DNA of 64,000 bases, taken from NCBI GenBank assembly GCA_021513695.1, contig CP084166.1, positions 416,001 to 480,000 on the forward strand. Direction: 5' to 3'. Both the position numbers and the translations under genes were made by a program. Source of the DNA: Candidatus Heimdallarchaeum aukensis (GTDB taxonomy: Archaea; Asgardarchaeota; Heimdallarchaeia; Heimdallarchaeales; Heimdallarchaeaceae). The notes below the pieces were generated by a model. The model was not told where the DNA came from and did not search any database. It saw nothing but the letters and a program-made list of their open reading frames with translations. Positions 37,574 to 64,000 of the stretch are shown here, piece after piece (within the stretch, counting starts at the first letter, position 1; each line of letters opens with the position of its first letter).

Positions 37574-38716
37574 TTACATCCTTTCTACTTCTTCTAAATA
37601 ATCAAAAAATTGAACTTTTTCTGATGTCTCAGAATCTTGCATTCTTTTTATTAATCTCTTTTTTGCAACCTCAATTGCTTTTTTTGAGTTATCTATACCT
37701 ATCCATCTTCTATCTAGTTCTTGAGCAGCAAGTAGAGTTGTGCCAGAACCGCAAAAACAATCAAGAACAATGCTATCTTTGTTAGAAGAAATAGCAATTA
37801 GAAGTTTTAACAATTCAATGTTTTTTTCTGTAGGGTAGCTGGGATATTGAGGATCTTTAAACTCTAGAATGTCTTGATATTTCATTCCTTTTTTCTCATC
37901 TGCATAAATTTTCTTCCTAGGAACACCTGTTTTTGACCATTCAATTAGTCCTTCTTTATCTAGTTTTTCTAGTTCTTCAGGAGAACTTCGCCAGTGTCGT
38001 CCTTTAGGCGGTAAAATTCCTTTCCACTCTTTTCCTGTCAAACCATTTTTTGTTTCTCCAGGAGCATGAAGAGGAATGGTGGTATATCTTCTTCCATCGC
38101 TATCAATTTTTTTGAAAAGACGATTAATGTCTTCTTCAGTAAAAGGTTTTTTTTGTTCATTCCAAATATAATCTTTAGTCTTTGAATAGAATAATATCAT
38201 GTCTTTAATATTACCAAAAGCTTTTCGATGAAAATTTTTGGGATTACACTTTATTCTTGACAAATCATTGATAAAATTCTCTTCTCCAAATATTTCGTCC
38301 ATTATGATTTTAACATAGTGACCTATTTTGTAGTCAGTATGGACATAGATAGAAGCTTGTTTTGACATTAATTCTCTTATTAAAACCAATCTTTCTCTAA
38401 GAAATTCAAGAAATTCATACCCCGTTACAATATCAGAAAAAGCTACATTCGAAGACAAACTGTTGCTAATTGTGTTAGCCCTATCTTCTGAAATTCTAAA
38501 AACCTTATTTGTAGAAAAAGGAGGATCTATATAGACCAAATCTATTTTTTCTTTATATTTTTCAGATTCTAGTAAATGTTTCATAACTCTCAAATTATCT
38601 CCAAAAATGAGTTTAGAACTAGTATTATTACTTCCGTTTATTGACTTTAATTCAATTTGAGGAATTGACTTGAATATCTCCTCTTTTGTCTTCTTGTTAG
38701 GATATTCTAAATACAT
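37574..38716 (-). CDS. Beta-class DNA methyltransferase (N6-adenine or N4-cytosine), apparently orphan
   Basis: 380 aa. Motif IV (DLVYIDPPFS) precedes motif I (VLDCFCGSGTT) plus the IGIDNSKKAIEVAKKRL helix. No nuclease-like neighbour. Confidence 0.85.
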   Translation of the reverse strand: MYLEYPNKKTKEEIFKSIPQIELKSINGSNNTSSKLIFGDNLRVMKHLLESEKYKEKIDLVYIDPPFSTNKVFRISEDRANTISNSLSSNVAFSDIVTGYEFLEFLRERLVLIRELMSKQASIYVHTDYKIGHYVKIIMDEIFGEENFINDLSRIKCNPKNFHRKAFGNIKDMILFYSKTKDYIWNEQKKPFTEEDINRLFKKIDSDGRRYTTIPLHAPGETKNGLTGKEWKGILPPKGRHWRSSPEELEKLDKEGLIEWSKTGVPRKKIYADEKKGMKYQDILEFKDPQYPSYPTEKNIELLKLLIAISSNKDSIVLDCFCGSGTTLLAAQELDRRWIGIDNSKKAIEVAKKRLIKRMQDSETSEKVQFFDYLEEVERM

Positions 38717-45535: not shown

Positions 45536-48505
45536 ATGAAAATAAAATCCATGAAATATAAAAAATATTTTTTCTTTGTACTTTTCACGGTCTTAGTTGT
45601 ATTCGCTTATCCACGAAGCTTTTACAACGAAGTTGAAGCAGGATATACACAAACAACTCCTATCAACATATATTCTGATTCAGACTTAGAAAGTTATTCA
45701 TTTCCTGGTACAGGAACTGAAGCTGACCCTTATATTATAGAAAATTATAACATCACAGTTACTAGTGGTTATGCTATTTCAATTAGAGCAACAACAAAAT
45801 ATGTCATTATAAGAAATAACTATATTATAGGGTCTGATACTGGCAATGGAATGTACATTTTTAGTGTTGCACCAAACACTGTTCATATAATAAATAACAC
45901 CGTTGTCAATGCTTATACTGGAATTTATGTAAATACTGAAGGACAAATGATAATAGAGAATAATACTGTAACAGGAGGAGAGTCTGCCTATTATTTCTCT
46001 TCAACTGGAAATATTAATTTTACTAACAATAAGGCAATCAATCCTAAAAAATATGGTTTAAGAGCTTATAATTTAAATAACTTCAGAATGGCTAATAGTA
46101 CTTTAATAGGCGCTGGAGTAGGTTTTTCTACAAGTAGTACATCCTTTTATGATAATTACTATTTTGATAACAATTCAATTAATAACAAGCCTTTGATGGT
46201 AGTTTATTCTTCATCAGATCTTGTTTTTGACAAAAATCAAAATGGTCAGATATTAATTATAGACAGCACGAACATCACAGTCAAAAATTATGTCTCAAGC
46301 GAAAATACTTTTGGAGTTTATTCCTACTATTCTGATAAAATAACAATAGAGGATAGTTTTTTTTCAAAAGCAGTTTCTTCAATTAAAGCAGAATATTCTT
46401 CAAATATTGAAATAAAGAATGTAAAAATTAGTAACACATACGAGTATGGAATGAATATTCGCAATATAGATGGAATTTCGATTGAAGATACTATAGTTGA
46501 AGATTCTAATAAAGGGATATATGCAAGAGGAATAAATAATTTAGAAATAACAAATACTACTTCCACTAATCATGAAAATGATGGCTTGTACCTGTGGTAT
46601 GTAAATAATGCAAATATTTCTAGTTCGTTTTTCGCAAATTGTAAGAACGGATTAGTTGCAAGAAGTTCAACTAACATAAGATTAGAAGAAAACTCAGCTT
46701 CAAACTGTAGTTATACAAGTTTTACTCTAATTTATCTTGAGAATGTAACAGTAAAAGATAACTTAATGGAATCTGGGATAAAACTTAACCATTACAACGT
46801 TGAATGGAGCTACGAATTCAGTAATAATACAATAAAAGGAAAACCTTTAGGTGTTTTTTATAATAAAACAGGGTTAACTATTGACTCAACTTATTCGCAA
46901 TTAATACTAGTAAATTGTACAGACTTTATAATCAATAATGCGTATTTTTCTCAAGTAGTAAGAGGAATTTACATTCTTTACGGAGAAAATATTTCTATAA
47001 ATAATATCTCGATGTACAACGTCTTTGAAGGTGGACTATTAGTAGAGTATTCCAAGAAAATAAGCATTCAAGATTTAAATGTAAATGGAGTAATAGGTAA
47101 TGAAGCTTATGGTATTTACACTTATAATGTAACTTCGGTGTTTCTTAATCATTCTATTTTTACACTGTGCGGAGATTATCCTTTTTATGGAGAAGAGATT
47201 GCAGATGCTATAATTTCTTATAATATATTTAATAATAGCACTAATAATGTGTTTTACATTTACAATGGCTTTAATCTTTCTATTTTTGGAAATGATTTTT
47301 TGTTTAATGATTATGCACTTTATGTTGAATTTTCAAACGAAATAGAATTCTACAACCTTGAATTAGAAATGGGAAATTGTTACTCTGAATGGAACGGTTC
47401 AACTAGATATCCTATTGAAACAGATAGTGGCTACATTTATGATGAATTTCCATTAAATGATACTGACAGAGATAAGCTTAACGACAGTTTAGAAGTGTAT
47501 AGTTACAATACTGACCCATTTCTTGCAGATACAGATTACGATATACTCAGTGATTATGACGAAATAATGAACTATGGAACTGACCCAAACTCGGTAGATT
47601 CAGATAATGATAATATGCCAGACAAATGGGAAATAGAAAATAATCTTAACCCAATCGAAGATGACTCCTCAGAAGATCCTGACGATGATGATTTGTCTAA
47701 CATAGAAGAATATAATTCACACACCAATCCCAATTCTGCTGATACAGATTCTGATGGTATGCCTGATGGTTGGGAAGTGGAAAATGAATTAAATCCTTTG
47801 ATAGATGATGCTGATGAAGACCCAGATAATGATGATCTAACTAATTTAGAAGAATACTCTAATAATACTGACCCTAACTCTGCAGATACAGATTCTGACG
47901 GTATGCCTGACAAATGGGAGGTAGATAATAATCTTGACCCAACTAAAGATGATGCTGATGAAGACCCAGATAATGATGATCTAACTAATTTAGAAGAATA
48001 CACTAACAACACAGACCCTAACACCAATGACACAGATGGTGATGGTATGTTTGATGGTTGGGAAGTAGATAATAGTCTTGATCCTCTAACTGATGATGCT
48101 GATGAAGATCCTGATAATGATGGACTAACAAATCTAGAAGAACATACAAACAATACTAACCCAAATGATGAAGATACGGATTCAGATGGTATGCCTGATG
48201 GATGGGAAGTGGAAAATGGATTAAATCCTCTGATAGATGATGCTGAGGAAGACCCAGATAATGATAGATTAACTAACATACAAGAATACTTGAATAACAC
48301 AGATCCCAACAATCCAGATACTGATGGAGATGGATATTCAGACTCTGAAGAAATAGAGAAAGGCTCTAACCCTACCGATGCTACAGATAAACCTCTTAAT
48401 TTGGGATTGATTCTTGGTTTATCCATTGGTATTCCAACTGTTCTTATTGCAGTCTTCTTATTTATAATGAAGAAAAAAGGTTTACTCTTCTTTAAGAAGA
48501 AGTAA
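45536..48505 (+). CDS. Large surface protein: N-terminal signal/anchor, right-handed parallel beta-helix region, six tandem 41-42-aa TSP3-like Ca-binding repeats, and a C-terminal TM anchor
   Basis: 989 aa. Many beta-helix rungs (NNTVVNAYTGIYVN, NNTVTGGESAYYF, and so on). The repeats read DTDSDGMPDGWEVENxLNPLxDDADEDPDNDDLTNLEEY. The C-terminus is a hydrophobic helix plus KKKG. Confidence 0.7.
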   Translation: MKIKSMKYKKYFFFVLFTVLVVFAYPRSFYNEVEAGYTQTTPINIYSDSDLESYSFPGTGTEADPYIIENYNITVTSGYAISIRATTKYVIIRNNYIIGSDTGNGMYIFSVAPNTVHIINNTVVNAYTGIYVNTEGQMIIENNTVTGGESAYYFSSTGNINFTNNKAINPKKYGLRAYNLNNFRMANSTLIGAGVGFSTSSTSFYDNYYFDNNSINNKPLMVVYSSSDLVFDKNQNGQILIIDSTNITVKNYVSSENTFGVYSYYSDKITIEDSFFSKAVSSIKAEYSSNIEIKNVKISNTYEYGMNIRNIDGISIEDTIVEDSNKGIYARGINNLEITNTTSTNHENDGLYLWYVNNANISSSFFANCKNGLVARSSTNIRLEENSASNCSYTSFTLIYLENVTVKDNLMESGIKLNHYNVEWSYEFSNNTIKGKPLGVFYNKTGLTIDSTYSQLILVNCTDFIINNAYFSQVVRGIYILYGENISINNISMYNVFEGGLLVEYSKKISIQDLNVNGVIGNEAYGIYTYNVTSVFLNHSIFTLCGDYPFYGEEIADAIISYNIFNNSTNNVFYIYNGFNLSIFGNDFLFNDYALYVEFSNEIEFYNLELEMGNCYSEWNGSTRYPIETDSGYIYDEFPLNDTDRDKLNDSLEVYSYNTDPFLADTDYDILSDYDEIMNYGTDPNSVDSDNDNMPDKWEIENNLNPIEDDSSEDPDDDDLSNIEEYNSHTNPNSADTDSDGMPDGWEVENELNPLIDDADEDPDNDDLTNLEEYSNNTDPNSADTDSDGMPDKWEVDNNLDPTKDDADEDPDNDDLTNLEEYTNNTDPNTNDTDGDGMFDGWEVDNSLDPLTDDADEDPDNDGLTNLEEHTNNTNPNDEDTDSDGMPDGWEVENGLNPLIDDAEEDPDNDRLTNIQEYLNNTDPNNPDTDGDGYSDSEEIEKGSNPTDATDKPLNLGLILGLSIGIPTVLIAVFLFIMKKKGLLFFKKK
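47597..48360 (+). repeat. In-frame tandem DNA repeats of about 123-126 bp (six copies) encoding TSP3-like units
   Basis: Repeated strings such as gatgatgctgatgaagacccagataatgatgatctaactaatttagaagaata recur with near-identity. Confidence 0.6.
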
Positions 48506-48570: not shown

Positions 48571-49467
48571 TTAGTAGAATTCTTTAGTTATAATTTCTAT
48601 TTGTTCATCACTTAAGCCTAGTTTGTCATGAGCAGGAATATATCCTTGGTTTAGAGCGAAATCTCTTTCTTCGTATGTTGTTTTATTTTCAATCTGGTAG
48701 AATATTCCTATAGGTAATTGATCTCTCACAAATCTCTGATTAGCCAAATCTATAGCAGCATGAAAGTCTTCTTTATCGTGGTCTGTTTCTTCTATTTTGT
48801 AAACTCTTGCTCTAAAGAAATCAAAAGTTTGGTTTCTGTTGAAAGTTATACATGGGCTAAAAACGTCAACAAATGCAAAACCTCTATGTTCTATTGCCTC
48901 TTTAAAGATATATTGTAAATGTTTAGCATCACCACTAAATCCTCTTGCTACAAAAGTTGCTCCTGCAGAAATTGCTAAAGAAACTGGATTCAAGGGGTTT
49001 TCTATGCTTCCTCTTGGAGTAGTCTTTGTTAATGTTCCTACTGGCGAAGTTGGAGAGGCTTGCCCTGTTGTTAGACCATAAATGAAATTGTTAGATACAA
49101 TTGTTATAATGTCCACATTTCTTCTACAAGCATGTAAAAAGTGATTTCCTCCTATCCCATAAATATCTCCATCTCCTCCATAAACAAGAACAGTTAATTT
49201 GGGATTAGCTAGTCTTACACCCGTCGCAACAGGAATTCCTCTTCCATGCACCGTCTGTATTCCATAAACATTTAAGAAATTGGGCATATGAGAAGAACAA
49301 CCAATTCCTGAAGCTAAAACAACTTCTTCAGGAGGAATCTCAAGTTCAGCTAGAGCAGCTCTTAAAGCTCTCCATTGGGCGAAGTTACCACAACCAGGGC
49401 ACCATGTAGGCCTAAAATTGCTTTTATAATCGTCAGCTTTATATTTTCTTTCACTCATTTTTAACAA
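48571..49467 (-). CDS. 2-oxoacid:ferredoxin oxidoreductase beta subunit (TPP-binding)
   Basis: 298 aa. CPGCGNF cysteine motif near the N-terminus. GGDGD TPP-binding motif (VYGGDGDIYGIGGNHF). Confidence 0.85.
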   Translation of the reverse strand: MLKMSERKYKADDYKSNFRPTWCPGCGNFAQWRALRAALAELEIPPEEVVLASGIGCSSHMPNFLNVYGIQTVHGRGIPVATGVRLANPKLTVLVYGGDGDIYGIGGNHFLHACRRNVDIITIVSNNFIYGLTTGQASPTSPVGTLTKTTPRGSIENPLNPVSLAISAGATFVARGFSGDAKHLQYIFKEAIEHRGFAFVDVFSPCITFNRNQTFDFFRARVYKIEETDHDKEDFHAAIDLANQRFVRDQLPIGIFYQIENKTTYEERDFALNQGYIPAHDKLGLSDEQIEIITKEFY

Positions 49468-51202
49468 TCTCCTTTACTTTCTCTACTATTTGGCTCGGAA
49501 CAATAAGTTCTCCATCATATCTTCGCAAGTGATGCTTGATATCAAAAGCAGTTTGCATACAAATATACTGCTGCATCTGTCCAGAAAAGTTCTGTTCTAT
49601 AATCAAAACTTCTTTAGCATTCTCCAAAATTTCTTTAACTTTTTCTTTTTGGAAGGGGAGAATGTATTTTATGTGAAGATGATTACTTTTTATTCCTTCT
49701 TCTTCCAGAAGAATTCGAGCTTCTCTAACAATATTTATTGTTGAGCCCCAAGAAACAAGTGTTATATCTGCATCTTTGTCTCCTTCGAAAATAGGTTCTG
49801 GTATCTCTTTTGCTACTTGCTCCAGTTTTCTAGCTCTTTTTTCAACCATTGCATTTCTAATAGGTAGAGTATCAGGAAGACCTGCTAAAGTTGACGCAAT
49901 AGAAAAACCTTTTTCATTTCTTTCACTAGAACCTGTAAAGTGCATACCTTTGGGTGTTCCTGGAAGTGTTCTGGGTGAAACTCCACTTTCTGTAATTTTA
50001 TATCTGAGATAATTGTCATCCACTTTGTCTAGAATACCATATCTTTTTGTTTTGTGTTTTAAATTGAGTTTTCTAACTGTAGCTATTCCTTCTGATAAAT
50101 AGAGATCCATTAAAACTATTACTACCATTTGATATTTTTCAGCTAATTCTAAAGATTCTACACCCACGTTAAAAGCATCTTCCATATCATATGGAGCGAT
50201 TATAATCTTAGGAAAGTCTCCTTGACTTGCACCATAAGCTTGGAACAAATCAGCTTGTTCGGTTTTTGTTGCCATTCCAGTTGAAGGACCAGCACGCATG
50301 GAGTTGATTATAACCAAAGGAACTTCTTGAATGGCAGCCATCCCTACAATCTCTGTCATGAGAGCAAATCCTCCTCCAGAAGTCCCCGTAGCAGCTCGTG
50401 CACCACAATAAGAAGCTCCTACAGCCATTCCTACTGCTGCTATTTCATCTTCAGTTTGTTTAACGATAATTCCTAATTTAGGTAGATATCTTGTGAGATA
50501 ATGAATAATTGAAGTCGCTGGAGTCATGGGGTATCCAGAATAATATTTCAAGCCACCTGTTAAAAGACCTAAAGCTAAAGCTTCATTTCCAGTTATGACC
50601 ATCTGTTTTCCTTTTTCAAACTTAAGTTTTTTAGATACCTTTTCCCAGTTATTGCTTTTAGCAAATTCAATTCCTAAATCTAAAGCTTTATAGTTTATTT
50701 CTACTACTTCTTTTCCTTTGTAACCAAATTGCTCTTCTAAAACTTCTTTAATTAGTTCAGTATCTAAACCTAGTATATGTCCTAAAGCTCCAAAAACAAT
50801 AATGTTCTTAATTACAGAAAGCTTAGAAACTTGCTTTGCTAATTCTTTCATGGGTATGGGTAATTTCTCTATTTTGTCAGAAGTGTAACCCAACTCATCT
50901 AAATCAACATAGTCTTGATCATAAACTATCTTTGCATTATCGTTGACCCTAGGAAGGTGTAATGCTGCAACATGTTTATTGAGCAAAACAATTATGTCTG
51001 CTTCTTCACCAACAGAATAAACTTTCTCGTCGCTGAATCTTAACTGATATTCGTTATATCCTCCTCGAATAACAGATTGATAACTTCTAAATCCTACTAG
51101 ATTTAGATTGTGTTTTTTAATTATTTTAGCAAAAAGCCAACCTAAAGAGACCAAACCATCTCCAGCACTACCAACAAATCTCACTGTAATATCTTGATTC
51201 AT
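49451..51202 (-). CDS. 2-oxoacid:ferredoxin oxidoreductase alpha subunit (fused gamma plus alpha domains)
   Basis: 583 aa. N-terminal gamma-like VRFVGSAGDGLVS, followed by an alpha-subunit pyrimidine-binding domain (GYPMTPATS). It overlaps the beta gene by 17 nt, an archaeal alpha-beta type operon. Confidence 0.85.
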   Translation of the reverse strand: MNQDITVRFVGSAGDGLVSLGWLFAKIIKKHNLNLVGFRSYQSVIRGGYNEYQLRFSDEKVYSVGEEADIIVLLNKHVAALHLPRVNDNAKIVYDQDYVDLDELGYTSDKIEKLPIPMKELAKQVSKLSVIKNIIVFGALGHILGLDTELIKEVLEEQFGYKGKEVVEINYKALDLGIEFAKSNNWEKVSKKLKFEKGKQMVITGNEALALGLLTGGLKYYSGYPMTPATSIIHYLTRYLPKLGIIVKQTEDEIAAVGMAVGASYCGARAATGTSGGGFALMTEIVGMAAIQEVPLVIINSMRAGPSTGMATKTEQADLFQAYGASQGDFPKIIIAPYDMEDAFNVGVESLELAEKYQMVVIVLMDLYLSEGIATVRKLNLKHKTKRYGILDKVDDNYLRYKITESGVSPRTLPGTPKGMHFTGSSERNEKGFSIASTLAGLPDTLPIRNAMVEKRARKLEQVAKEIPEPIFEGDKDADITLVSWGSTINIVREARILLEEEGIKSNHLHIKYILPFQKEKVKEILENAKEVLIIEQNFSGQMQQYICMQTAFDIKHHLRRYDGELIVPSQIVEKVKEIVKNE

Positions 51203-51344
51203 ACACTTATTCGCTCTTCTAAGCTTCTAAGAGCACATAATTTAAAGAGATAAAAAATCTTGCTAAATGGATATGATTTATTTTAGATCAACATTTGTCA
51301 CTTAAAATTACTTAAAACTTAAGAACAATAATGCATATTTTCAT

Positions 51345-52313
51345 TTGGTGGTTTTTATTACAAATGAAAACACTTTTCGCACAGAAAAAGAAAATGAACT
51401 TGGTTTCGAACAATTTTTGATAAAAAAACCTTCAGTTTTTAGGTGGATAATAGTTTTCTTAATTACACTTGGTTCTAATTTACTTTGGGTAGCGCTTACA
51501 GAAATTCCACTAATGCTATTACTTTTTGTTGTAGGTGGGGTAATTACTATTTCAATCTTCTTTTGGTCTGTAACAGGTCAATGGAGTGTAAGAATACTAG
51601 TTCTAAAAAATATTGAACGTATATCGGTTGGAAAAATGGGTTTTTTTCTTAAATATTCTATGAAGTTCCTTGGAATGCATTTTGATAAAAATAATAAATA
51701 CTTTTTAGAACGAACAAGCTATTTTAGAGATTATAATAATATAAAAGAATTATTTTATGATAGACTTCTTGACCCTGTTTCTTCGTCACTTGGATTAGGT
51801 TTCTTAATAATAACTTTTGTCAAACCATTCATCACTACTGTTCCACAAGCAATGATTATAGCAAACTTCGTTCTTCTTACAACTCCATTACTGGCAGGTT
51901 TTATAATTCCATTCTATTGGATAATAAAAGATTCTAGAATAAGATACATAAATGAGAAAAACGACATTTTCAAAGCAGAAGAAAATATAAAGAAGAGTAC
52001 ACTTAACAAGTTTTTAGGTTTTTCAGGTTTTGTTGCAGGAATTAATTTCCTACTAGAAAGTTTGCCAGAACATCCAGCATTTGCTAAAGTTAACTCGACT
52101 TTGGTTTTATTCATACTTTCAGTAATCGTCCTTCTGTTCATAAGCTTGATAGTTGCAGGAATAAACCTTTTTGTAGCAACAGTATATCTAACAACAAAAC
52201 ATCAAAAATTAGTAAATGAATTAAGAAATAAAATTACAAATTTTATTCCTGTAGGAGAAACTAATGTTTTACTAAATGATGAAAGAAAATCAGAAGTTAA
52301 CTTTCAAAGATAG
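51345..52313 (+). CDS. Hypothetical polytopic membrane protein
   Basis: 322 aa with at least six TM helices. The true start may lie downstream of the annotated Met. Confidence 0.4.
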   Translation: MVVFITNENTFRTEKENELGFEQFLIKKPSVFRWIIVFLITLGSNLLWVALTEIPLMLLLFVVGGVITISIFFWSVTGQWSVRILVLKNIERISVGKMGFFLKYSMKFLGMHFDKNNKYFLERTSYFRDYNNIKELFYDRLLDPVSSSLGLGFLIITFVKPFITTVPQAMIIANFVLLTTPLLAGFIIPFYWIIKDSRIRYINEKNDIFKAEENIKKSTLNKFLGFSGFVAGINFLLESLPEHPAFAKVNSTLVLFILSVIVLLFISLIVAGINLFVATVYLTTKHQKLVNELRNKITNFIPVGETNVLLNDERKSEVNFQR

Positions 52314-52551
52314 TTTTTTTTTTATTTTTAATTTTGTTATGATCTTAGACAATTAAAATATTCTTTTAAACTTTCGTTACAATATTTGATGAATTTGGGA
52401 AATTTGTATATTCTAATCCAATTAAACAAGAGTAAATAATAAAATTGCAATGAAAATCAATTACAATTAACTTTTGTTTAATTAAAGCTAGAAAATAGAT
52501 TATAATTTGTAAAAGATTGTTTAGGAAGTCTAAATAAAAAAAGAAAGGAAA

Positions 52552-54459
52552 TTAGTAGATTTTTTTCAGTTGTTTAAGGAGAGGAGTATAGATATCATAC
52601 TCTTCTTTTAGATCTTTTGCTATTATTAGTTCTTTCAGATTCTGTGCAGATTGTAAAATAAAAGTGGGTGCAGTACTCTCAATTAATGGATATTGTTTTG
52701 ATTTATATCCTGCTAAAACAGTATTGTTCTTTAGGCAAATAGAAGCCAATAGTTTAATTTCCTCTTCTTCGTTTAGTTCTTCTCCTTTTTCAAATAACCA
52801 GTTTATAGAACCTTTTTCTGCTATACTGCCTACCCAGATTAATAGAAGATAATCATAGATATCGTTAGGAAAGCCTAAACTGTTGTATTTGTTAAAAACA
52901 GAGAATAAATTAGCAAATTGTTCTACTTCTTTATTATCTTTACTTACTATCATTATAGAGATAAGAAAATCTTTTTGAACATCTGTGAGAGTATCTAAAA
53001 GCTCTTTCTTTATCTTTAACAATTCATCTTTCTTCTCTTTAATTTCTTCATAACTTTCATTGTTTATTTTGTAATTTCCAATTATCTCATCAAGTTGTTT
53101 TTTCCTTTCTTCTTCTAAACCTTCTAAATCTTTTGTATAATTTTCAATAATCTCTTTTAGAGTTTCTTTAGCTTCTTCTACTTCTTTCTCTGTAACTTCT
53201 GCATTAGTGATGGTCTTTCCTTGCATTGCAGCTTTTGTCTGTTTTTGCCAACTAAGTGCGTCTTTTAAACTTTTATCGTTTAATAAAGAGTTGATCATCT
53301 TTGCAACTATGTATTTAATTTCAACGATGGAATTAGCATCTCTTGTAGCTATTGAAAGAAATAGGTGTAAAACATTAGGCATCAAATTATAAGGATCAAT
53401 TTGTTGATTTCCTCTCAATGCACTAAAATTAAAGTTAGATAATGCCCATTCATATAAAGAACTTCCAACGAAGTTTGAAGGGGGATTAAGGGCAGAAAAT
53501 ATAGGTAAAGAAGTATACATGTTACCTATTGACAATAAAACATTATGCCAACCAAAGGTCGAAGAATCAAATTCTTTAATTCTTATTTCTTTTCCAGAGA
53601 TAAGGTATTCTTCAGTCAAATAATAAATTAAATGTTTATTTAAGCTGACTGAAGATAGAGAATCTGCTTCATATTTGGTCTCATTACTGTTTAATACAGA
53701 TATTAGCTCTATATTGTTAAATAATTCTGCTTGATTAGCGTCATCAAGTATTTCTTTTATTGATTCTTGGTTTTCAGGGTATAATGCTTCTAGAATGTGG
53801 TATATCCAGTGAATAATGTAAGCATAAACATTCTCATTTTGTTTAAGCACTTTTCTCCATTCAAACCATTGTTTTAGTCTATTTAGATAGATTTCACTCA
53901 TCTTTTCAATATCTGAATCACTTAATTCTTTTGTTGAATAACGCAATGGAAAGATTGAAACAGGTTCCTTATTATTAAACAGCACTTCTTTAATGTCTTT
54001 AATTAGTGTGTTAATAATTAGTTCAAGATCCATAATTGCATAACGTGAGATTACTTTTGCTTCTTTAAAATAATCAAAAGAGCAGCTTCCATTTCTCAAG
54101 AAAATGGGTTCATGAATGTAACTAACAATTTTATCAAAGAATTCTTTCCCCTTTTCATCTAATTGAGCAATAAGTTCTGATACTTCTTGAAAGATATAGG
54201 CATTAAGAAAAGCGTTAAACGCTGTTCCAATAATTTTTGCATTTGAAGCATAACTCTTAATAATTTTATTAATCTCTGGACTATTCTTTTTTATTTTACT
54301 TAACTCAAAGTCATCTGGAATCTTAACTAGTTCTTTATTACTATCTCGTGGCCTAAGAAATTTTCCTTCACTTTGAAAGACAAGTAGTTTGTTCTTTGTA
54401 TCCAAACCAAAAATAACTTCCTTGTCTAGCAATTTTCCTTCAAAAATTTTTATATCCAT
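52552..54459 (-). CDS. Hypothetical cytoplasmic protein, 635 aa
   Basis: Long uninterrupted ORF with normal composition and a central coiled-coil stretch (EEAKETLKEIIENYTKDLEGLEEERKKQL). No recognisable family motif. Confidence 0.4.
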   Translation of the reverse strand: MDIKIFEGKLLDKEVIFGLDTKNKLLVFQSEGKFLRPRDSNKELVKIPDDFELSKIKKNSPEINKIIKSYASNAKIIGTAFNAFLNAYIFQEVSELIAQLDEKGKEFFDKIVSYIHEPIFLRNGSCSFDYFKEAKVISRYAIMDLELIINTLIKDIKEVLFNNKEPVSIFPLRYSTKELSDSDIEKMSEIYLNRLKQWFEWRKVLKQNENVYAYIIHWIYHILEALYPENQESIKEILDDANQAELFNNIELISVLNSNETKYEADSLSSVSLNKHLIYYLTEEYLISGKEIRIKEFDSSTFGWHNVLLSIGNMYTSLPIFSALNPPSNFVGSSLYEWALSNFNFSALRGNQQIDPYNLMPNVLHLFLSIATRDANSIVEIKYIVAKMINSLLNDKSLKDALSWQKQTKAAMQGKTITNAEVTEKEVEEAKETLKEIIENYTKDLEGLEEERKKQLDEIIGNYKINNESYEEIKEKKDELLKIKKELLDTLTDVQKDFLISIMIVSKDNKEVEQFANLFSVFNKYNSLGFPNDIYDYLLLIWVGSIAEKGSINWLFEKGEELNEEEEIKLLASICLKNNTVLAGYKSKQYPLIESTAPTFILQSAQNLKELIIAKDLKEEYDIYTPLLKQLKKIY

Positions 54460-54639
54460 TTTTTTCCCCTTTTCTCGCTATTAATGAACATTTTGCAAAG
54501 TTTTTATTTGTTTGCTTGTATGACATACAATTTTAACTTCAAATAATAATTCTAAATGTTAATTTAAATTAGGTCCCTTTAAAAAATCTTAAAAAATAAA
54601 TAAGTTATTCATATTATCGATTATACAGAGAATCTAGAA

Positions 54640-55938
54640 ATGAATAAAGTAAATTATCTTTCAGAGAAAGGAATGTTCATCGAAAAAAATGTTAATCTTT
54701 CAGCAGGAACTCTTGCTTGGGGAAGTAAGGCAAGACAAAGAGCTAAAGAAGTTAAGGATTTTATAGACGCAACAATTGGCTCGGCAAAAAGTGATGAAGG
54801 AAAGTTATTTGCTTTTAAAACCTTTGAAGAGGAATTAAAAGGGTTACCAGCAGATAAAATGTTTGGTTATGCAAACGTTAGAGGACAAAAAAGATTTACA
54901 AGAGCTTGGATGGAAGATACATTAGAAACCTTTCCAAGTGAATATAGAGAAAAATCTCGTTTATTATCAACAGAACCTATAACAACTTGCGGCGGGATTA
55001 CAGGAGGATTAACTATTGCAGGTCAACTCTTTTTCGATAAAACAGATAATTTACTTGTTCCTAATTCAAGATGGAGTAATGTAGATAATTGTTTCTTCAA
55101 AAACCAACAGATAACAGAATTAAATTATAATCTGATTGACATAGAAGGAAATCTATCTTTTGATGACCTTATAGAGAAAATTAAACTTCTAGAAAAAGAA
55201 AATAAAAAAATTGGTATATACTTTAATTTTCCAAACAATCCCAGTGGTATAAGCCCCACTTTATCACAAATAAAAGAAATTCAAGAAACTTTAGAAGAAG
55301 TAAAAGTTCCAACAGTAATTATTTTAGACGATGCTTATGAAGGATATGTCTATTCTGATGATGTTTTAGATCATTCGATTTACCCTTATTTAATCGGGCT
55401 AAATGAGAATGTCCTAACAATTAAAGTAGACGGTATGAGTAAAAGATATTCTGCTTATGGAGTAAGATTAGGTACAATTATGCTAGGTTTTGGAAAAGAA
55501 GTTGATGAGAAAGAAAAAGAAGATTATCGCGAGCTGATAGCTAAAGGTGCAAGGTCTTTAACTTCTAGTTCTCCAAGAGGTCCTCAAGAAGCTTTTGCCA
55601 ACATTTCAGAAGACAAAAAGAAGAAAGAACAACTGAAAAAAGAAAAAGAAGAATTAAAGAATCTATTAAAAGAGAGGTATTTAGAGATAAAAGCTTTAAT
55701 AAAAGATAAAGAGCATGATACTATTCACCCTGTCGACTTTAATAGTGGTTTCTTCGGTTATTGGATAATTAAGAACGATCTTCTATCATTCGATTTAGGA
55801 GAAAAGTTGTTAGAAAGAGGTTTAGGAACTGTACCATTTTACAACAATACAACAGGATTAAATGGTATAAGATTAGCTTTTTGCTCAATAAAAAGAGATG
55901 ATCTCGAAAAAGCAATTGATATTCTTTATTCAATCTAA
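54640..55938 (+). CDS. PLP-dependent aminotransferase, class I/II fold
   Basis: 432 aa. NFPNNPSGISPT (N-x-P-x-N-P-T/S-G) and a Schiff-base Lys region KVDGMSKRYSAYGVRLG (SKxxxxxGxRxG). It contains an unusual K/E-rich coiled-coil insertion. Confidence 0.65.
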   Translation: MNKVNYLSEKGMFIEKNVNLSAGTLAWGSKARQRAKEVKDFIDATIGSAKSDEGKLFAFKTFEEELKGLPADKMFGYANVRGQKRFTRAWMEDTLETFPSEYREKSRLLSTEPITTCGGITGGLTIAGQLFFDKTDNLLVPNSRWSNVDNCFFKNQQITELNYNLIDIEGNLSFDDLIEKIKLLEKENKKIGIYFNFPNNPSGISPTLSQIKEIQETLEEVKVPTVIILDDAYEGYVYSDDVLDHSIYPYLIGLNENVLTIKVDGMSKRYSAYGVRLGTIMLGFGKEVDEKEKEDYRELIAKGARSLTSSSPRGPQEAFANISEDKKKKEQLKKEKEELKNLLKERYLEIKALIKDKEHDTIHPVDFNSGFFGYWIIKNDLLSFDLGEKLLERGLGTVPFYNNTTGLNGIRLAFCSIKRDDLEKAIDILYSI

Positions 55939-57795: not shown

Positions 57796-60700
57796 TTATT
57801 CTTTCTTCTTACCTTCACCTATAATTTCCCAATCACGATATTGGCTAAGTAAACGGTCAATCTCATTATCAATATCAATAGTTTCTTTTCTTACAAAAGA
57901 TTGCTCAAGTTCATAATATTCACCAATATCAGGGTTAGCTTGTAGGATATCTTTGAGATACTCTTCAACAACAGATTTAGAAAGACCGCTAAGTTCAGAA
58001 ATTCGTTGCAAAGTAACAGAAATATTAGGTTTGAATTGGTTAAGCAAGTTAATGAGAGTTTTATAATCTTCTTCTCTCTTCAATGCTTTCATGTACTCAG
58101 ATTTAGTTTTATAGCCTTGAGCAGAGATTTCTTCCCACTCAGACTTAGTTTTAAAACCTAACTTCATTGCTGTATACATTTCTTTGATAGAAGAAAAACC
58201 AAAAGAAGAAGCTCTTTTACGAAGATAAAGTCTAATTCCTATAAAAGTCAAAAAAGCAACAGCACCAGTAACAATGACAGCACCTGTAACTATTGAAATA
58301 ATTGTGAGTATTCTTTTAACTTTCAATTTGTGTTCTAAATTCGATTTAGGATTGAGAGGATCAAAACCGTTTTCTATTTCTTTACCATCATTTTCTCCAT
58401 CTCCATCAGTGTCAGAATTGTTAGGGTCTGTTCTATAAATCTTTACTTCTTCATAATCAGTTAATCCATCACTATCAGAATCACTACTTGTGGGGTTAGT
58501 AAAATATTCTTTAATCTCTTCATAATCAGTTAATCCATCATTATCTGTATCAGTACTATTAGCAAACGTACCAACATTAAATTCTTCAAGATTGGTTAAA
58601 CCATCACCGTCTAAATCAGAGTTGGAATCATCTGTTAATGGGTCTAATCCAGAATGAACTTCATAACCATCAGGCATACCATCTTCGTCAGTGTCAGAGT
58701 TGTTAGCGAAAGTGCCAAGAGTATATTCCTCAAAATTAGATAAATTATCGTTATCGAAATCAGAATTACTATCATTAACAATTGCGTTTGTACCTGTTTG
58801 AACTTCCCACAAATCATCCATCAAGTCACCATCAGTATCAGTACTATTAGCAAACGTACCAACATTAAATTCTTCAAGATTGGTTAAACCATCACCGTCT
58901 AAATCAGAGTTGGAATCATCTGTTAATGGGTCTAATCCAGAATGAACTTCATAACCATCAGGCATACCATCTTCGTCAGTGTCAGAGTTGTTAGCGAAAG
59001 TGCCAAGAGTATATTCCTCAAAATTAGATAAATTATCGTTATCGAAATCAGAATTACTATCATTAACAATTGCGTTTGTACCTGTTTGAACTTCCCACAA
59101 ATCATCCATCAAGTCACCATCAGTATCAGTACTATTAGCAAACGTACCAACATTAAATTCTTCAAGATTGGTTAAACCATCACCGTCTAAATCAGAGTTG
59201 GAATCATCTGTTAATGGGTCTAATCCAGAATGAACTTCATAACCATCAGGCATACCATCTTCGTCAGTGTCAGAAACCAAAGGATCAGTACCGTAAGTGT
59301 TAACCTCTTCTCCATCAGTTAAACCATCACTGTCAGTGTTAGAAGTAGTAGGATCAGTTGAATAAACATTGATTTCACTAAAATCATCTAATCCATCACT
59401 ATCAGTATCAGAAGTAGTAGGATCAGTTGAATAATTTACTACTTCATCAAAATCATCCAATCCATCACTGTCAGTATCAACCTTACTCATATCTGTCCCT
59501 AAAATCTCCTCCTCATGGTCAAACAATCCATCATTATCAGTATCTAAATATTCCCCTGTCCTTTGATTGTTAACCGAATCAGTATAGAGTGGAGCATATC
59601 CAAGGCCAATAGAATTCCAAATAGATACTCCCATGTTGGAAACATCACCGTACCCGGCAAGTATTTCTAAGGAAGAATCGTTATCGACATCAGCAACAGC
59701 TAAAGACCAAAAAGTACCACTTGTCGTTTTTGGCCAACCAGGAACAACAGTACCATCACTATTCCAAATAACCACTCCACCACCAAAGTCAATACGATAC
59801 CCGGCAATTATCTCAAGTGCTGAATCGTTATCGACATCTGCAATAGTTAAAGAATGAACTTCACCACTTGTTTCACTTGTTGTTTGTGGCCAACCAGGAA
59901 CAACAGTACCATCACTATTCCAAATAATTACGCCACCACTGTAGTATTCACCGTACCCAGCAATTATTTCTAATGTTGAATCATCATCAACATCTGCAAC
60001 AGCTAAAGAATAAACATAACCACTTGTTGTTTTTGGCCAACCAGCAACAACACTACCATCACTATTCCAAATAACTACTCCACCACCATATCCTGCAATT
60101 ATTTCTAATGTTAAATCATCATCAACATCTGCAACAGCTAAAGAACGAACATCATCACTTGTTTTTGGCCAACCAGGAACAACAGTACCATCACTATTCC
60201 AAATAATTACTCCACCACCATATCCTGCAATTATTTCTAATGTTGAATCATCATCAACATCTGCAACAGCTAAAGAATAAACATAACCACTTGTTGTTTT
60301 TGGCCAACCAGCAACAACACTACCATCACTATTCCAAATAACTACTCCACCATAACCAGCATCACGATATCCTGCAATTATTTCTAGTTCTGAATCACCA
60401 TCAACATCAGCAAGAGCTAAAGAATAAACATAACCACTTGTTGTTTTTGGCCAACCAGCAACAACACTACCATCACTATTCCAAATAACTACTCCACCAT
60501 CATCAACATATCCTCCTCCTGCGACTATCTCGAGTTTTAAATCACCATCAACATCAGCAAGAGCTAAAGAATAAACATCTCCGCTTGTAGTTTTAGGCCA
60601 ACCAGGAATAACAGTACCATCACTATTCCAAATAACTACTCCACCATAATACCCTGCAAGTATTTCTAGTTCTGAATCACCGTCCACATCTCCAACAGCT

Positions 60701-62244
60701 AAAGAATAAACATAACCGCTTGTAGTTTTTGACCAAGAAAATAAAGTTGAATAATAATTAATAAAAGAGTTATAGCGACTGTTACTTGTATTATAGTTAG
60801 TTGTTTTCCAATCAAAAACATTATCACAGCTAATTTGAGCAGCTAAAATATAACCATAATAATCTGAATAGTATAAATATTTGCCTTGAATAGTAATTAT
60901 TCTGTTTAAATATAAATAACCTGATAATATTGCTTCATTCGTGGATGAAGAATAAAAATGCTTTGCATAAACATTTGAAGAGGAACAATATAGTAATTCC
61001 CAATTATAATCATTGTCCACATCGGTAAGTATAGGTTCTTCTTGAATATTTAGACCTAAGGAACTACTATACTCATTTAATATCTCTCCGGTGAAAGAAA
61101 AACTTTTTTGTTCTCCGTTTGTTGATAGAGTAACTATTTCATACTCTCTATCCCAATTAATATCAACAATTATAGGACCTAACCACTCTGAATCACCTGA
61201 AGAAGTAAGCCAAGAATGAATAGTAGTACCATTATTTGATAAAAGATAAAGATTTCTTCCTGCAGGGCAAACAATGTCTATTTTACTGTCTTTGTTGATG
61301 TCTGCAACTGCAAGAGGATGAGTAATAGGCTCTGTTAAATCTTTAGGAAAATTTGAGATGATGTCTCCATTTCCTTTCCACGCGTAAACTTTTCCATCGG
61401 TACTACCTACAATAACATCTTTGGAACCATCATTGTCTACATCAGCTAAAACTGGTGCAACTATTACTTCTCCTCCTGTTGTTTTAGGCCAACCAGCTAA
61501 AAGATTTCCACTTCCATCAAATGCATAAACTTTTGAACTGTTAGATCCAACCACTATCTCATTTTTATCGTCTCCATTAATATCTCCAACTGCTAATGTT
61601 TCTTCTACTGGTCCCTCACAATTGACTGGCCAACCTGGTATACTAGTACCATCACCGTAAAATGCGTAAACCGAACCATTAGCTGCTCCTATAATTATTT
61701 CTTCAGTTGCACTATTTCCATCTATATTAGCTAACATTGGTGTAGATATTAAAGCAACACCTATGTTTTTTCCATCTATCCAATTTGAAGATTCTGTACC
61801 ATCTATCTCGTAAACTCTTATTATGCCATTTAACGTTCCTACAACAATTTCATAATTTCCATCTCCGTCTATATCCCCTGCTCCAGGTCCTCCTTTTAAC
61901 TCTCCCCCTACATATATTGGCCAACTACCAAAAGAATTGAGAGATTGAGAGATTTTTTTACCTGAAAAATTGTTATCTAAAAGTTCAGAACGGGAAGAAG
62001 TTGTTTTGATCTCTATGTCGTTGTTCGCTTCTTCAACTCTTTGTAAATCTGTGTGATAATCATTATTTTGACTTACATTATTTTGACTTACATTACTTTG
62101 TTGTGAATCTAAAATGATATTATTAAAATCTTTCATCACTAGAGAATTTGTAGTCATTGAACTTGTAATTATAATTAGTAATGCTACTACCATTCCTGAA
62201 TATTTTGATTTCCCTCTAAAACTTTTTTTTATTCGTTTCATCAT
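57796..62244 (-). CDS. Giant integrin-like type I membrane protein: signal peptide, FG-GAP/VCBS beta-propeller repeats, TSP3-like Ca-binding repeats including near-perfect 96-aa tandem units, a TM helix, and a 170-aa cytoplasmic tail
   Basis: 1482 aa. FG-GAP signatures (IADVDGDGNYEIVVG, VGDINGDDKNEIVVG, LADVDNDGSKDVIVG). About 9 repeats of GGVVIWNSDGSVVAGWPKTTSGYVYSLAVADVDDDSxLEIIAGY. DTDSDGLDDFDE-type units. A TM helix (ILTIISIVTGAVIVTGAVAFLTFIGI), then a basic-start cytoplasmic tail. Confidence 0.75.
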   Translation of the reverse strand: MMKRIKKSFRGKSKYSGMVVALLIIITSSMTTNSLVMKDFNNIILDSQQSNVSQNNVSQNNDYHTDLQRVEEANNDIEIKTTSSRSELLDNNFSGKKISQSLNSFGSWPIYVGGELKGGPGAGDIDGDGNYEIVVGTLNGIIRVYEIDGTESSNWIDGKNIGVALISTPMLANIDGNSATEEIIIGAANGSVYAFYGDGTSIPGWPVNCEGPVEETLAVGDINGDDKNEIVVGSNSSKVYAFDGSGNLLAGWPKTTGGEVIVAPVLADVDNDGSKDVIVGSTDGKVYAWKGNGDIISNFPKDLTEPITHPLAVADINKDSKIDIVCPAGRNLYLLSNNGTTIHSWLTSSGDSEWLGPIIVDINWDREYEIVTLSTNGEQKSFSFTGEILNEYSSSLGLNIQEEPILTDVDNDYNWELLYCSSSNVYAKHFYSSSTNEAILSGYLYLNRIITIQGKYLYYSDYYGYILAAQISCDNVFDWKTTNYNTSNSRYNSFINYYSTLFSWSKTTSGYVYSLAVGDVDGDSELEILAGYYGGVVIWNSDGTVIPGWPKTTSGDVYSLALADVDGDLKLEIVAGGGYVDDGGVVIWNSDGSVVAGWPKTTSGYVYSLALADVDGDSELEIIAGYRDAGYGGVVIWNSDGSVVAGWPKTTSGYVYSLAVADVDDDSTLEIIAGYGGGVIIWNSDGTVVPGWPKTSDDVRSLAVADVDDDLTLEIIAGYGGGVVIWNSDGSVVAGWPKTTSGYVYSLAVADVDDDSTLEIIAGYGEYYSGGVIIWNSDGTVVPGWPQTTSETSGEVHSLTIADVDNDSALEIIAGYRIDFGGGVVIWNSDGTVVPGWPKTTSGTFWSLAVADVDNDSSLEILAGYGDVSNMGVSIWNSIGLGYAPLYTDSVNNQRTGEYLDTDNDGLFDHEEEILGTDMSKVDTDSDGLDDFDEVVNYSTDPTTSDTDSDGLDDFSEINVYSTDPTTSNTDSDGLTDGEEVNTYGTDPLVSDTDEDGMPDGYEVHSGLDPLTDDSNSDLDGDGLTNLEEFNVGTFANSTDTDGDLMDDLWEVQTGTNAIVNDSNSDFDNDNLSNFEEYTLGTFANNSDTDEDGMPDGYEVHSGLDPLTDDSNSDLDGDGLTNLEEFNVGTFANSTDTDGDLMDDLWEVQTGTNAIVNDSNSDFDNDNLSNFEEYTLGTFANNSDTDEDGMPDGYEVHSGLDPLTDDSNSDLDGDGLTNLEEFNVGTFANSTDTDNDGLTDYEEIKEYFTNPTSSDSDSDGLTDYEEVKIYRTDPNNSDTDGDGENDGKEIENGFDPLNPKSNLEHKLKVKRILTIISIVTGAVIVTGAVAFLTFIGIRLYLRKRASSFGFSSIKEMYTAMKLGFKTKSEWEEISAQGYKTKSEYMKALKREEDYKTLINLLNQFKPNISVTLQRISELSGLSKSVVEEYLKDILQANPDIGEYYELEQSFVRKETIDIDNEIDRLLSQYRDWEIIGEGKKKE
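58537..59275 (-). repeat. Near-identical 288-bp tandem DNA repeat (about 2.6 copies) inside the giant surface-protein gene
   Basis: The string aacttcccacaaatcatccatcaagtcaccatcagtatcagtactattagcaaacgtacc begins at 58801 and again at 59089. Hundreds of bases are identical between copies. Confidence 0.7.
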
Positions 62245-62491: not shown

Positions 62492-63616
62492 ATGATTTCT
62501 TATTACTCTATAGGTTTATTCTTATTTGAGCAACTTACTTTTATTACTAGCAGCATTATTTTGTTTAGAACTTACAAGCAGACTCGCTTTCTTTCTCACT
62601 TCCTTTTGGGTACTAGCTATCTTTTGTGGGTTTTCAATTCTATAGGAAGATTCATTACTTCTTTTTTCAGTGAAAATGTAATAATCTTCGACAATACTCG
62701 ACTTATTTCACTTATTTGGATCATTGTTAACTGTTTGTTAATTCTTGGAATGATTTTCGTTTTCTATTCTTTTATTTATTTCAAGACTAACAGATTACAT
62801 CCTATAATAAACATAGTTAGTTTTTTAGGAGGAGCATTATTTCTTGCATTTATAATACCTGATTTCACTGAATTGACTTACTCTGAACAACTTGGAGCTT
62901 GGTCTGCGAAATATAGTATTTGGATATCTGTTCTTGTTATTCCAATGCTTTTATTCTTCATTTTTTCTTTTATTCTTCCCATTTCTACAAAAATTGTTAG
63001 AACTACTGACAAAGATATTCGTAAGCAACTATTTGTGCAGATAGTCGGACTTATTATCGTAATTATCTGGGCATTTTTCGCTGGTTTTACTAGCAATGCT
63101 GTTCTTCGAGCTGTTCGTCCTTTCCTTATGGCAACAGGCTGGTTTATCTGGTCTTTAACTTTGATAATGGATCCTTTCAACATAATGATTTCTAACGCTA
63201 AAATTAGTCAATTATTGATTACAACTACTAGCGGTTTACCAATCTATTATGATGACTTCACTTTTGATGAAAAAGAAGTAAAAAGTGAGATTTCTGCAGA
63301 TCTAGCTTCAGGTTTAATTTCAGGAGTTACCCAAGCTCTAGAGCAAATAATGGAAAGAAAATCGGAATTAAACACTGTAGTATATAAAGACAAAGTTATA
63401 GGTACTACTGCAGTAGGCTATCTTCAAGCATATATTTTTGGAGAAAGATTTGATAAAACTTTAGAAACTGTATTAAATGTTCTTCTAAGAGAAATACAAG
63501 ATAATCCAGCTCTTGCTTTAAAAATCACTCCCAACTTTGTAGATCTAGATGGGGCTTCAGGAAAAATCTTGAAACTCATAGTTGAAAAAAATCTAAAGAG
63601 AATATTAGTAATTTAA
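62492..63616 (+). CDS. Hypothetical membrane protein (N-terminal polytopic domain) with a roughly 130-aa C-terminal cytoplasmic alpha/beta domain
   Basis: 374 aa with six to seven TM helices. The soluble C-terminal domain (SADLASGLISGVTQALEQI...VVYKDKVIGTTAVGYLQAYIF...) is possibly roadblock/LC7-like. That assignment is a weak guess. Confidence 0.4.
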   Translation: MISYYSIGLFLFEQLTFITSSIILFRTYKQTRFLSHFLLGTSYLLWVFNSIGRFITSFFSENVIIFDNTRLISLIWIIVNCLLILGMIFVFYSFIYFKTNRLHPIINIVSFLGGALFLAFIIPDFTELTYSEQLGAWSAKYSIWISVLVIPMLLFFIFSFILPISTKIVRTTDKDIRKQLFVQIVGLIIVIIWAFFAGFTSNAVLRAVRPFLMATGWFIWSLTLIMDPFNIMISNAKISQLLITTTSGLPIYYDDFTFDEKEVKSEISADLASGLISGVTQALEQIMERKSELNTVVYKDKVIGTTAVGYLQAYIFGERFDKTLETVLNVLLREIQDNPALALKITPNFVDLDGASGKILKLIVEKNLKRILVI

Positions 63617-63774
63617 TTAATTTGCATTCTTTTCTTCCTTTTTCTTTCTTATGTTCTATATTTAGCTTTTATTATACTAGGTAAATATACGAAACTATCA
63701 TATCTTTTAATATAAGTTCAAAATAGTTGATTAATAGGAAATAAACTTTTAAATAACCAATTTTAGAAATAAAT

Positions 63775-64000
63775 ATGATTGCACCAACTATTGATTCTTT
63801 ATGGTCTGCAGCTTTGGGATATTTTTTTGGTTCAATACCCTTATCTTTTATAATCGTCAAAGTTTTTCTTGACGGGTTAGATATTCGAACAGTTGGATCA
63901 AAAAATGTCGGTGGAAGAAATGTTATTAGATCTTTCAAGTATAAAGGAAAGTCAAATAATGTTGCTTATACTATGGGGTTAATTGTAGCTATCTTTGATA
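63775..64000 (+). CDS. plsY: PlsY-like acyl-phosphate:glycerol-3-phosphate acyltransferase, 5' fragment truncated by the window end
   Basis: ATG at 63775. [38 protein letters not shown] matches the PlsY N-terminal consensus (LGSIP...G.D.R..GSGN.GATNV.R). Confidence 0.5.

Follow-up and report, generated by a model that had tools for sequence, protein, structure and literature searches.

The locus and its putative promoter

The DNA analysed here (the window) is a stretch of 64,000 nucleotides from Candidatus Heimdallarchaeum aukensis. At its far edge, an ATG at 63775 opens a frame on the forward strand that runs off the end of the window (63775..64000; 75 codons plus one base). The gene upstream, at 62492-63616 on the same strand, encodes a multi-pass membrane protein of 374 aa that matches neither Pfam nor NCBIfam, and beyond it a 1482-aa repeat-rich surface-type protein with a C-terminal transmembrane segment is encoded on the reverse strand (57796-62244). 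The counterpart of this last protein in Ca. H. endolithica has 1381 aa, 75% identity and a different repeat count; this is a surface protein that evolves rapidly.

There is a TATA-like box, TTTTAAATAA, at 63747-63756 on the forward strand, approximately 24 nt upstream of the ATG and within a conserved block (63720..63774). In this block the window and Ca. H. endolithica agree at 49/55 bases, and at 29/29 around TTTTAAATAA, while the remaining intergenic spacer has 48/103 identical bases and an 11-nt indel. The octamer TTTAAATA is scarce in the window (15 found in comparison with 25.7 expected from shuffles). We infer that TTTTAAATAA is the archaeal TATA box of the gene at the edge, and its distance from the ATG suggests a leaderless or near-leaderless mRNA.

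The window also holds the eukaryote-like ubiquitin system that had been noted in a preliminary description of this DNA. The genes form an Asgard-type ubiquitin/ESCRT cluster at 30.8-34.9 kb, all on the forward strand, and encode a ThiF E1-like protein (30830-31693), a JAB deubiquitinase-like protein (31707-32765), a UFC1-like E2 (33080-33661) and an EAP30/Vps36-like protein (33837-34874), after which comes an SPFH/Band 7 protein. Elsewhere, a 1929-aa ORF on the reverse strand (2656-8445) carries two full UvrA domain sets (UvrA_inter, UvrA_DNA-bind and ABC_tran, each twice); this ORF is about double the length of a normal UvrA and resembles a UvrA-UvrA fusion in tandem. At 15395-17251, 23064-25118 and 25303-27288 there are genes for proteins whose repeats are of the TSP3 and beta-propeller or beta-helix types. 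Two N6/N4 DNA methylase genes (PF01555) lie on the reverse strand at 12526-13422 and 37574-38716, one of them adjoining small ORFs, and these may belong to restriction-modification systems or be orphan methylases.

The gene at the window edge encodes a PlsY-family protein

The 75-residue fragment matches Pfam PF02660 (G3P_acyltransf) over positions 1-43 of the 164 in the profile (E=6.2e-10; 39.8 bits, where the gathering score is 24.1 bits), and its top NCBIfam model is TIGR00023 PlsY. The preliminary description had recognized a truncated PlsY-like ORF here from GSIP and motif 1, both of which the fragment contains, and had proposed to extend the contig. The extension was found in a second sequence, L082, whose positions 1-565 are identical to 63436-64000 of the window (100% identity, 565 bases), a match far beyond chance, and which carries the complete gene. 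The product, P0002, is 242 aa long and its residues 1-75 are the same as those encoded in the window. PF02660 is the precomputed family of P0002, and its NCBI name is 'glycerol-3-phosphate acyltransferase [Candidatus Heimdallarchaeum aukensis]'.

Among the species genomes of GTDB, a scan identified an orthologue in PR6 (Ca. H. endolithica, closed chromosome CP084167.1) that is 99% identical over the 75 residues and, at full length, 98% identical to P0002. The PR6 orthologue covers profile positions 1-163/164 of PF02660 (117.4 bits) and matches Aquifex aeolicus PlsY (PDB 5xj5) with E=6.5e-14 in HMMER. The AlphaFold2 model of P0002, made with a 99-sequence alignment as input, has a pLDDT of 94.4 and a pTM of 0.90. 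When it was compared with the PDB using Foldseek, only the PlsY structures 5xj5-5xj8 were matched (probability 1.0; target-normalised TM 0.78-0.79), and every non-PlsY match had E>1. Taken together, the membership of P0002 in PF02660 and in the predicted seven-helix PlsY fold is secure. The PR6 orthologue falls short of the TIGR00023 PlsY equivalog, however, with 124.5 bits against a cut-off of 137.2.

One protein, P0001, was the sole match in a first word-indexed search with the 75-aa fragment and was rejected as a full-length reference because it is frameshifted on its contig. A plsY-like copy of 73% identity on a JGI metagenome contig (L001:3035-3773) has a +1 frameshift just before GGKGVAS and is a pseudogene or an assembly error.

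Active-site residues

The substrate contacts of PlsY are known from the Aquifex enzyme (Li et al., 2017; PMC5700162). The acyl-phosphate site consists of the backbone amides of residues 104-107, the side chain of His92 and the hydroxyl of Thr41, which contacts the acyl carbonyl. The phosphate of G3P is clamped by Ser35, Arg45, Lys104 and Asn180, and the glycerol 2-OH is contacted by Ser142 and His177. These residues were mapped onto P0002 using the HMMER alignment to 5xj5 and a multiple alignment of the family (A1). Seven of the positions are kept: Ser35 (Ser42 in P0002), Asn37 (Asn44), Asn42 (Asn49), Arg45 (Arg52), His92 (His112), Ser142 (Ser158) and Asn180 (Asn215). Lys104 has changed conservatively to Arg124; Heimdallarchaeum has Arg at this position, and many of the related proteins described below have Lys. 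Thr41 is replaced by Arg48 and His177 by Gln212.

In terms of the PlsY motifs, motif 1 (GSGNxGATNxxR; residues 41-52 of P0002) has its Ser, both Asn and its Arg but departs from the consensus in having Arg for Thr41. His92 and motif 2 (GGKGVA, the phosphate hole) are present, as GHNW and HGGRGVAT. Motif 3 (HxxNxxR...GxE) reads SRQKSNFMKIKNGEAK, in which Asn180 and a G-E-x-K tail are kept but His177 is Gln. The preliminary description had named the lack of the remaining PlsY motifs in the full-length protein as the result that would count against it, and this is half true of P0002: motif 2 is present and motif 3 is without its His.

Both replaced positions are important in Aquifex PlsY, where the residual activities of mutants are 4.8% for T41A, 25% for K104R and 1.0% for H177Q (PMC5700162). 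The kcat/Km of H177Q is 219-fold lower and no side chain that was tried substitutes for His177 (PMC5700162). Arg at position 41 and Arg at position 104 occur in approximately 3% of natural PlsY homologues (PMC5700162 Table 2), and Gln is absent from the natural alternatives listed for position 177 (PMC5700162). The alignments place Arg48 and Gln212 in the putative pocket of P0002, at the positions of Thr41 and His177.

A divergent subfamily restricted to Heimdallarchaeia

The two replacements are a property of a whole group of proteins, which we refer to as the R/Q type. In alignment A1 the two clades nearest P0002 (RQ1 and RQ2) have Arg at 41, Gln at 177 and Asn at 180 in 56/56 proteins, and Ser at 142 in 55/56. 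Identity to the query is 57-98% in the RQ1 clade and 31-42% in the RQ2 clade, and two further representatives (P0148 and P0149) have the same R/Q pattern. Across lineages of only 38-40% identity, conservation is strict in the phosphate clamp, in the loop of the phosphate hole and at His92 and Asn37. R/Q proteins also have a conserved extra C-terminal helix (...MKLWKIFxGKAxEALK), a feature not seen in canonical PlsY. Further R/Q-type proteins score 98.6 and 107.5 bits against TIGR00023, which is again under 137.2.

An exhaustive phmmer search of 1.84 billion cluster representatives returned 8399 family members at E<1e-3. Among these matches there are three at E<1e-30 and a handful at 1e-20 to 1e-30, and the bulk of ordinary PlsY lies at approximately 1e-17. 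All named R/Q members are assigned to Heimdallarchaeaceae, Heimdallarchaeota, Kariarchaeaceae or 'Asgard group archaeon'. The window gene is therefore a member of a small divergent PlsY subfamily that so far occurs only in Heimdallarchaeia. In the literature searched, we found neither the split between the R/Q and canonical lineages nor the loss of Thr41 and His177; this search was limited and an earlier mention is possible.

The preliminary description had called the gene a bacterial-type PlsY in an archaeal genome. The PlsY family and the archaeal genome are borne out, but 'bacterial-type' does not fit a divergent lineage confined to Heimdallarchaeia that scores below the equivalog cut-off and carries the T41R and H177Q replacements.

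Genomic residence and neighbourhood

Over its final 11 kb, and into the gene itself, the window is collinear with the closed chromosome of Ca. H. endolithica PR6, at 89-94% nucleotide identity. The GC content of the gene is 33% (window, 30%) and its GC3 is 27%, like that of the neighbouring genes. The same sequence occurs in independent assemblies, and there is no bacterial sequence closer than approximately 40% identity. Archaeal-type genes throughout the window had been taken in the preliminary description as an argument against contamination, and the collinear closed Heimdallarchaeum chromosome and the host-like composition support that argument.

At least seven further Heimdall MAGs (L003-L009) carry orthologues of the R/Q type. 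There they are flanked by a class I/II aminotransferase, a protein of approximately 640 aa and a 2-oxoacid:ferredoxin oxidoreductase pair, with an Eis-like GNAT/SCP2 acetyltransferase and a protein of approximately 490 aa and unknown function as further neighbours. In the window, the oxidoreductase alpha and beta genes, a 635-aa ORF and the aminotransferase lie together at 48571-55938, 8-15 kb upstream of the gene and in inverted orientation. This points to an inversion or insertion that took place locally in the genus Heimdallarchaeum. Neighbours that are common to the window and the other MAGs argue for long residence of the gene and for vertical inheritance within the class, and an ancient transfer into the Heimdall ancestor is possible.

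Downstream of the gene, L082:1107-11068 encodes a BirA-like biotin ligase on the reverse strand, an acyl-CoA carboxylase carboxyltransferase (524 aa, mmdA-like, 755 bits) and an ORF of at least 3344 aa. This giant ORF might be among the giant genes of the Heimdallarchaeum mobile elements (Wu et al., 2022). At none of the loci examined is the plsY-like gene flanked by lipid genes. In a Pfam scan of 40 window ORFs, a set that leaves out those at 45536-48505 and 57796-62244 among others, there was no match to plsX, plsC, gpsA, G1P dehydrogenase, DegV or prenyltransferase. Similarly, no source of acyl-phosphate (PlsX or FakA/FakB) was found in the scanned ORFs of the 64-kb window or of the approximately 11 kb beyond it.

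A canonical PlsY lineage in other Heimdallarchaeia

A different PF02660 protein, marked by GSGNMG(AT/TA)N ... WRH(K/R)xNI, is encoded on two other Heimdall contigs (L016 and L047). This paralogue passes TIGR00023 (161.4 bits), and its NCBI name is 'glycerol-3-phosphate 1-O-acyltransferase PlsY'. Its clade (P0293-P0334) has approximately 40% identity to Firmicutes PlsY, and over the N-terminal 155 residues the paralogue and P0002 share 32% identity. In some members of the clade motif 1 has GTAN or GMAN, not GATN. A neighbour-joining tree was built by a rough distance method (Kimura distance computed in numpy, 199 columns, 100 bootstraps) and gave support of 100 each to RQ1, RQ2 and the canonical Heimdall clade and 68% to RQ1 plus RQ2; the R/Q group and the canonical Heimdall clade were sisters in 0 of 100 replicates. 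One MAG (SRP214966_co2_105) holds both types, the R/Q gene on L004 and the canonical gene on L016. Indirectly, the data suggest that the two Heimdallarchaeum genomes carry the R/Q type only, the canonical clade not having been detected in them.

On L047 a DegV-family gene (PF02645, 206.9 bits; TIGR00762, 216.9 bits) lies near the canonical plsY. FakB, which binds fatty acids as a subunit of an acyl-phosphate-making kinase, belongs to the DegV family. The arrangement is the same at L047:9962-14323 and L016:9962-14911, where the canonical PlsY gene is three genes from the DegV/FakB-family gene and has an alpha/beta hydrolase upstream; a 516-aa gene directly downstream of the canonical plsY has no family match. 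The proximity of the DegV/FakB gene is a hint that the canonical Heimdall lineage may truly use acyl-phosphate, and some Heimdallarchaeia could have a Fak-type acyl-phosphate supply and incorporate fatty acids. It says nothing direct about the window gene.

Published work on archaeal PlsY and lipids

PlsY-like genes are already known from Asgard archaea, and the window gene is already annotated. Asgard PlsY and PlsC homologues are credited in later papers to Villanueva et al. (2017) and appear likewise in Manoharan et al. (2019) (PMC6737245), and Coleman et al. (2019) described both homologues in Heimdallarchaeota LC_2 and Lokiarchaeum but PlsY for Thorarchaeota. Published PlsY phylogenies have no specific link to eukaryotes, and PlsY is described, in a passage of PMC5700162, as being without eukaryotic homologues. 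Published trees place the root of PlsY in Bacteria and read the archaeal copies as transfers, and neither PlsX nor PlsB is known from any archaeon (PMC6431249). According to a 2022 review the function of archaeal PlsY homologues 'remains to be elucidated' (PMC9385802), and the literature searched gave no biochemical data for them.

Ester-lipid genes were surveyed in both circularised Heimdallarchaeum genomes by Wu et al. (2022), and PlsC is missing from both (PMC8813620); no mention of PlsY, PlsC, PlsX or K08591 was found in the supplements of that study. A 2026 paper in EMBO Rep has shown that bacterial PlsY and PlsC take both G1P and G3P, and it points to the Asgard plsY and plsC genes (PMC13400652). 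It has no discussion of His177, Ser142 or docking and gives no structural rule for stereoselectivity (PMC13400652). The sole cultured Asgard lipidome cited there is described, in the relevant passage, as containing archaeal lipids only (PMC13400652).

Possible functions of the R/Q protein

The explanation that we prefer is that this is a vertically inherited gene, probably natively expressed, for an integral-membrane PlsY-family protein of 242 aa. Its phosphate hole (His112 and the GG(K/R)GVA loop) would hold the phosphate of an acyl-phosphate donor, and its phosphate clamp (Ser42, Arg52, Arg/Lys124 and Asn215), together with the contact from Ser158, would hold an acceptor of the glycerol-phosphate type. 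The acceptor would then be esterified in an acyl-phosphate-dependent reaction by the substrate-assisted mechanism of PlsY. G1P, the abundant archaeal isomer, is an obvious candidate acceptor, although this is speculation. The strict retention of clamp, hole, His92 and Asn37 at 38-40% identity suggests an active enzyme with two phosphorylated ligands, and the invariant Arg and Gln at the carbonyl and 2-OH contacts suggest that its specificity is probably not that of bacterial PlsY. From the conserved residues, we consider the chance to be about even that the R/Q protein is still an acyl-phosphate-dependent acyltransferase, with donor and acceptor specificity probably unlike those of the bacterial enzyme.

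It is possible, if rather doubtful, that this PlsY-fold protein no longer acylates glycerol phosphate and acts instead on another phosphorylated membrane substrate, or has a non-catalytic role in binding or transport. Both of the residues that were replaced are experimentally important in PlsY, and because H177Q is nearly dead in the Aquifex background the R/Q protein could be a weak acyltransferase or an inactive one. Consistent with a changed function, other divergent PF02660 lineages are without motif 3 and are named only 'membrane protein' by NCBI, the extra C-terminal helix is conserved and no lipid-synthesis genes are neighbours. Against this, the whole phosphate clamp, the hole loop, His92 and Asn37 are strictly kept, which is the pattern of an active enzyme.

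We think it unlikely that the protein is an ordinary PlsY that, in line with its annotation, makes 1-acyl-sn-glycerol-3-phosphate from acyl-phosphate and G3P and so feeds the synthesis of ester-linked membrane phospholipids of a bacterial or eukaryote-like kind. The full-length PF02660 match, the PlsY fold and the retention of most substrate-binding residues would fit such an enzyme, as would the natural occurrence of Arg at T41 and K104 in approximately 3% of homologues (PMC5700162). Nor need the lack of a G3P source be a block, since the bacterial enzyme takes G1P as well as G3P (PMC13400652). The score under the TIGR00023 cut-off does not fit, however, and neither does a Gln at position 177 that is invariant even though H177Q leaves 1% activity in Aquifex PlsY. 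Additionally, PlsC is missing from both Heimdallarchaeum genomes (PMC8813620) and PlsX and PlsB from archaea (PMC6431249), and the sole cultured Asgard lipidome cited, as it is described, has archaeal lipids only. A separate canonical PlsY exists in other Heimdall MAGs, and the presence of both in one of them (L004 and L016) suggests that the two are not redundant.

A bolder reading of the R/Q type, as a PlsY re-tooled for sn-glycerol-1-phosphate or for an ether-lipid intermediate such as geranylgeranylglyceryl phosphate, is in our view quite improbable. On this reading Gln at the 2-OH contact and Arg at the carbonyl contact would be the adaptations to the new substrate. If it were true, ester-containing or hybrid ether/ester lipids would be produced by a non-bacterial route in Heimdallarchaeia, which of all archaea are the closest to eukaryotes.

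Finally, PlsY is overwhelmingly bacterial and published trees read the archaeal copies as transfers, but the chance of bacterial contamination of the assembly or of a very recent bacterial transfer is negligible, and both are excluded by the collinearity with a closed circular Heimdallarchaeum chromosome, the independent assemblies, the neighbours shared with at least seven MAGs and the host-like composition.

On the preferred explanation, that of an acyl-phosphate-dependent acyltransferase of probably altered specificity, two substrate-contact residues are replaced and the window gene is for this reason weak evidence for bacterial-type lipids. Alone, it does not indicate a bacterial-type phospholipid pathway in Ca. 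Heimdallarchaeum aukensis. The preliminary description had linked the gene to the lipid divide; the gene is indeed present, but PlsY-like genes of Asgard archaea had been published before, PlsX and PlsC are reported missing and the published phylogenies show no specific link to eukaryotes. Asgard PlsY and PlsC homologues are often cited as hints of ester-linked lipids in the archaeal ancestor of eukaryotes. In Heimdallarchaeia the name 'PlsY' covers two separate lineages, and the closed Heimdallarchaeum genomes carry the non-standard one, so presence/absence tables in which the R/Q type is scored as 'PlsY present' make bacterial-type lipids look better supported than they are. The strictly conserved remainder of the active site and the length of 242 aa make the R/Q protein a clean, small target for biochemical assay.

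Comparison with known systems

Bacterial PlsY (Aquifex aeolicus, PDB 5XJ5-5XJ9; TIGR00023) and the R/Q type share the full PF02660 profile and the seven-helix fold, and they are of similar size (approximately 200 aa in comparison with 242 aa in P0002). The two differ in sequence, with approximately 25% identity and an R/Q score under the equivalog cut-off, and in architecture, the R/Q type having a longer TM6-TM7 loop and a C-terminal helix that is amphipathic as well as extra and conserved. They also differ in setting, because the R/Q host is an archaeon in which PlsX and PlsC are reported absent.

The canonical Heimdall PlsY is like the window gene in family, in archaeal class and in its annotation as a glycerol-3-phosphate acyltransferase. 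It is unlike the window gene in that His177 and Asn180 are both kept, TIGR00023 is passed and a DegV/FakB-like gene is nearby.

A third comparison is with the PRK14417, PRK14416 and PRK14399 lineages of PF02660, which NCBIfam names 'membrane protein' and which occur in, for example, Chloroflexota, Micrarchaeota and Omnitrophota. These are of the same fold family as the R/Q type and likewise have altered PlsY motifs, and some of the PRK-type proteins (L017 and P0150) share GSKNVGGRN in motif 1 with it. The R/Q type scores far under the cut-offs of the PRK-type models, however (88 in comparison with 249 bits), and whereas the PRK-type lineages are mostly without the H..N of motif 3 (R..A in the Chloroflexota type), the R/Q type keeps Asn180 and the G-E-x-K tail.
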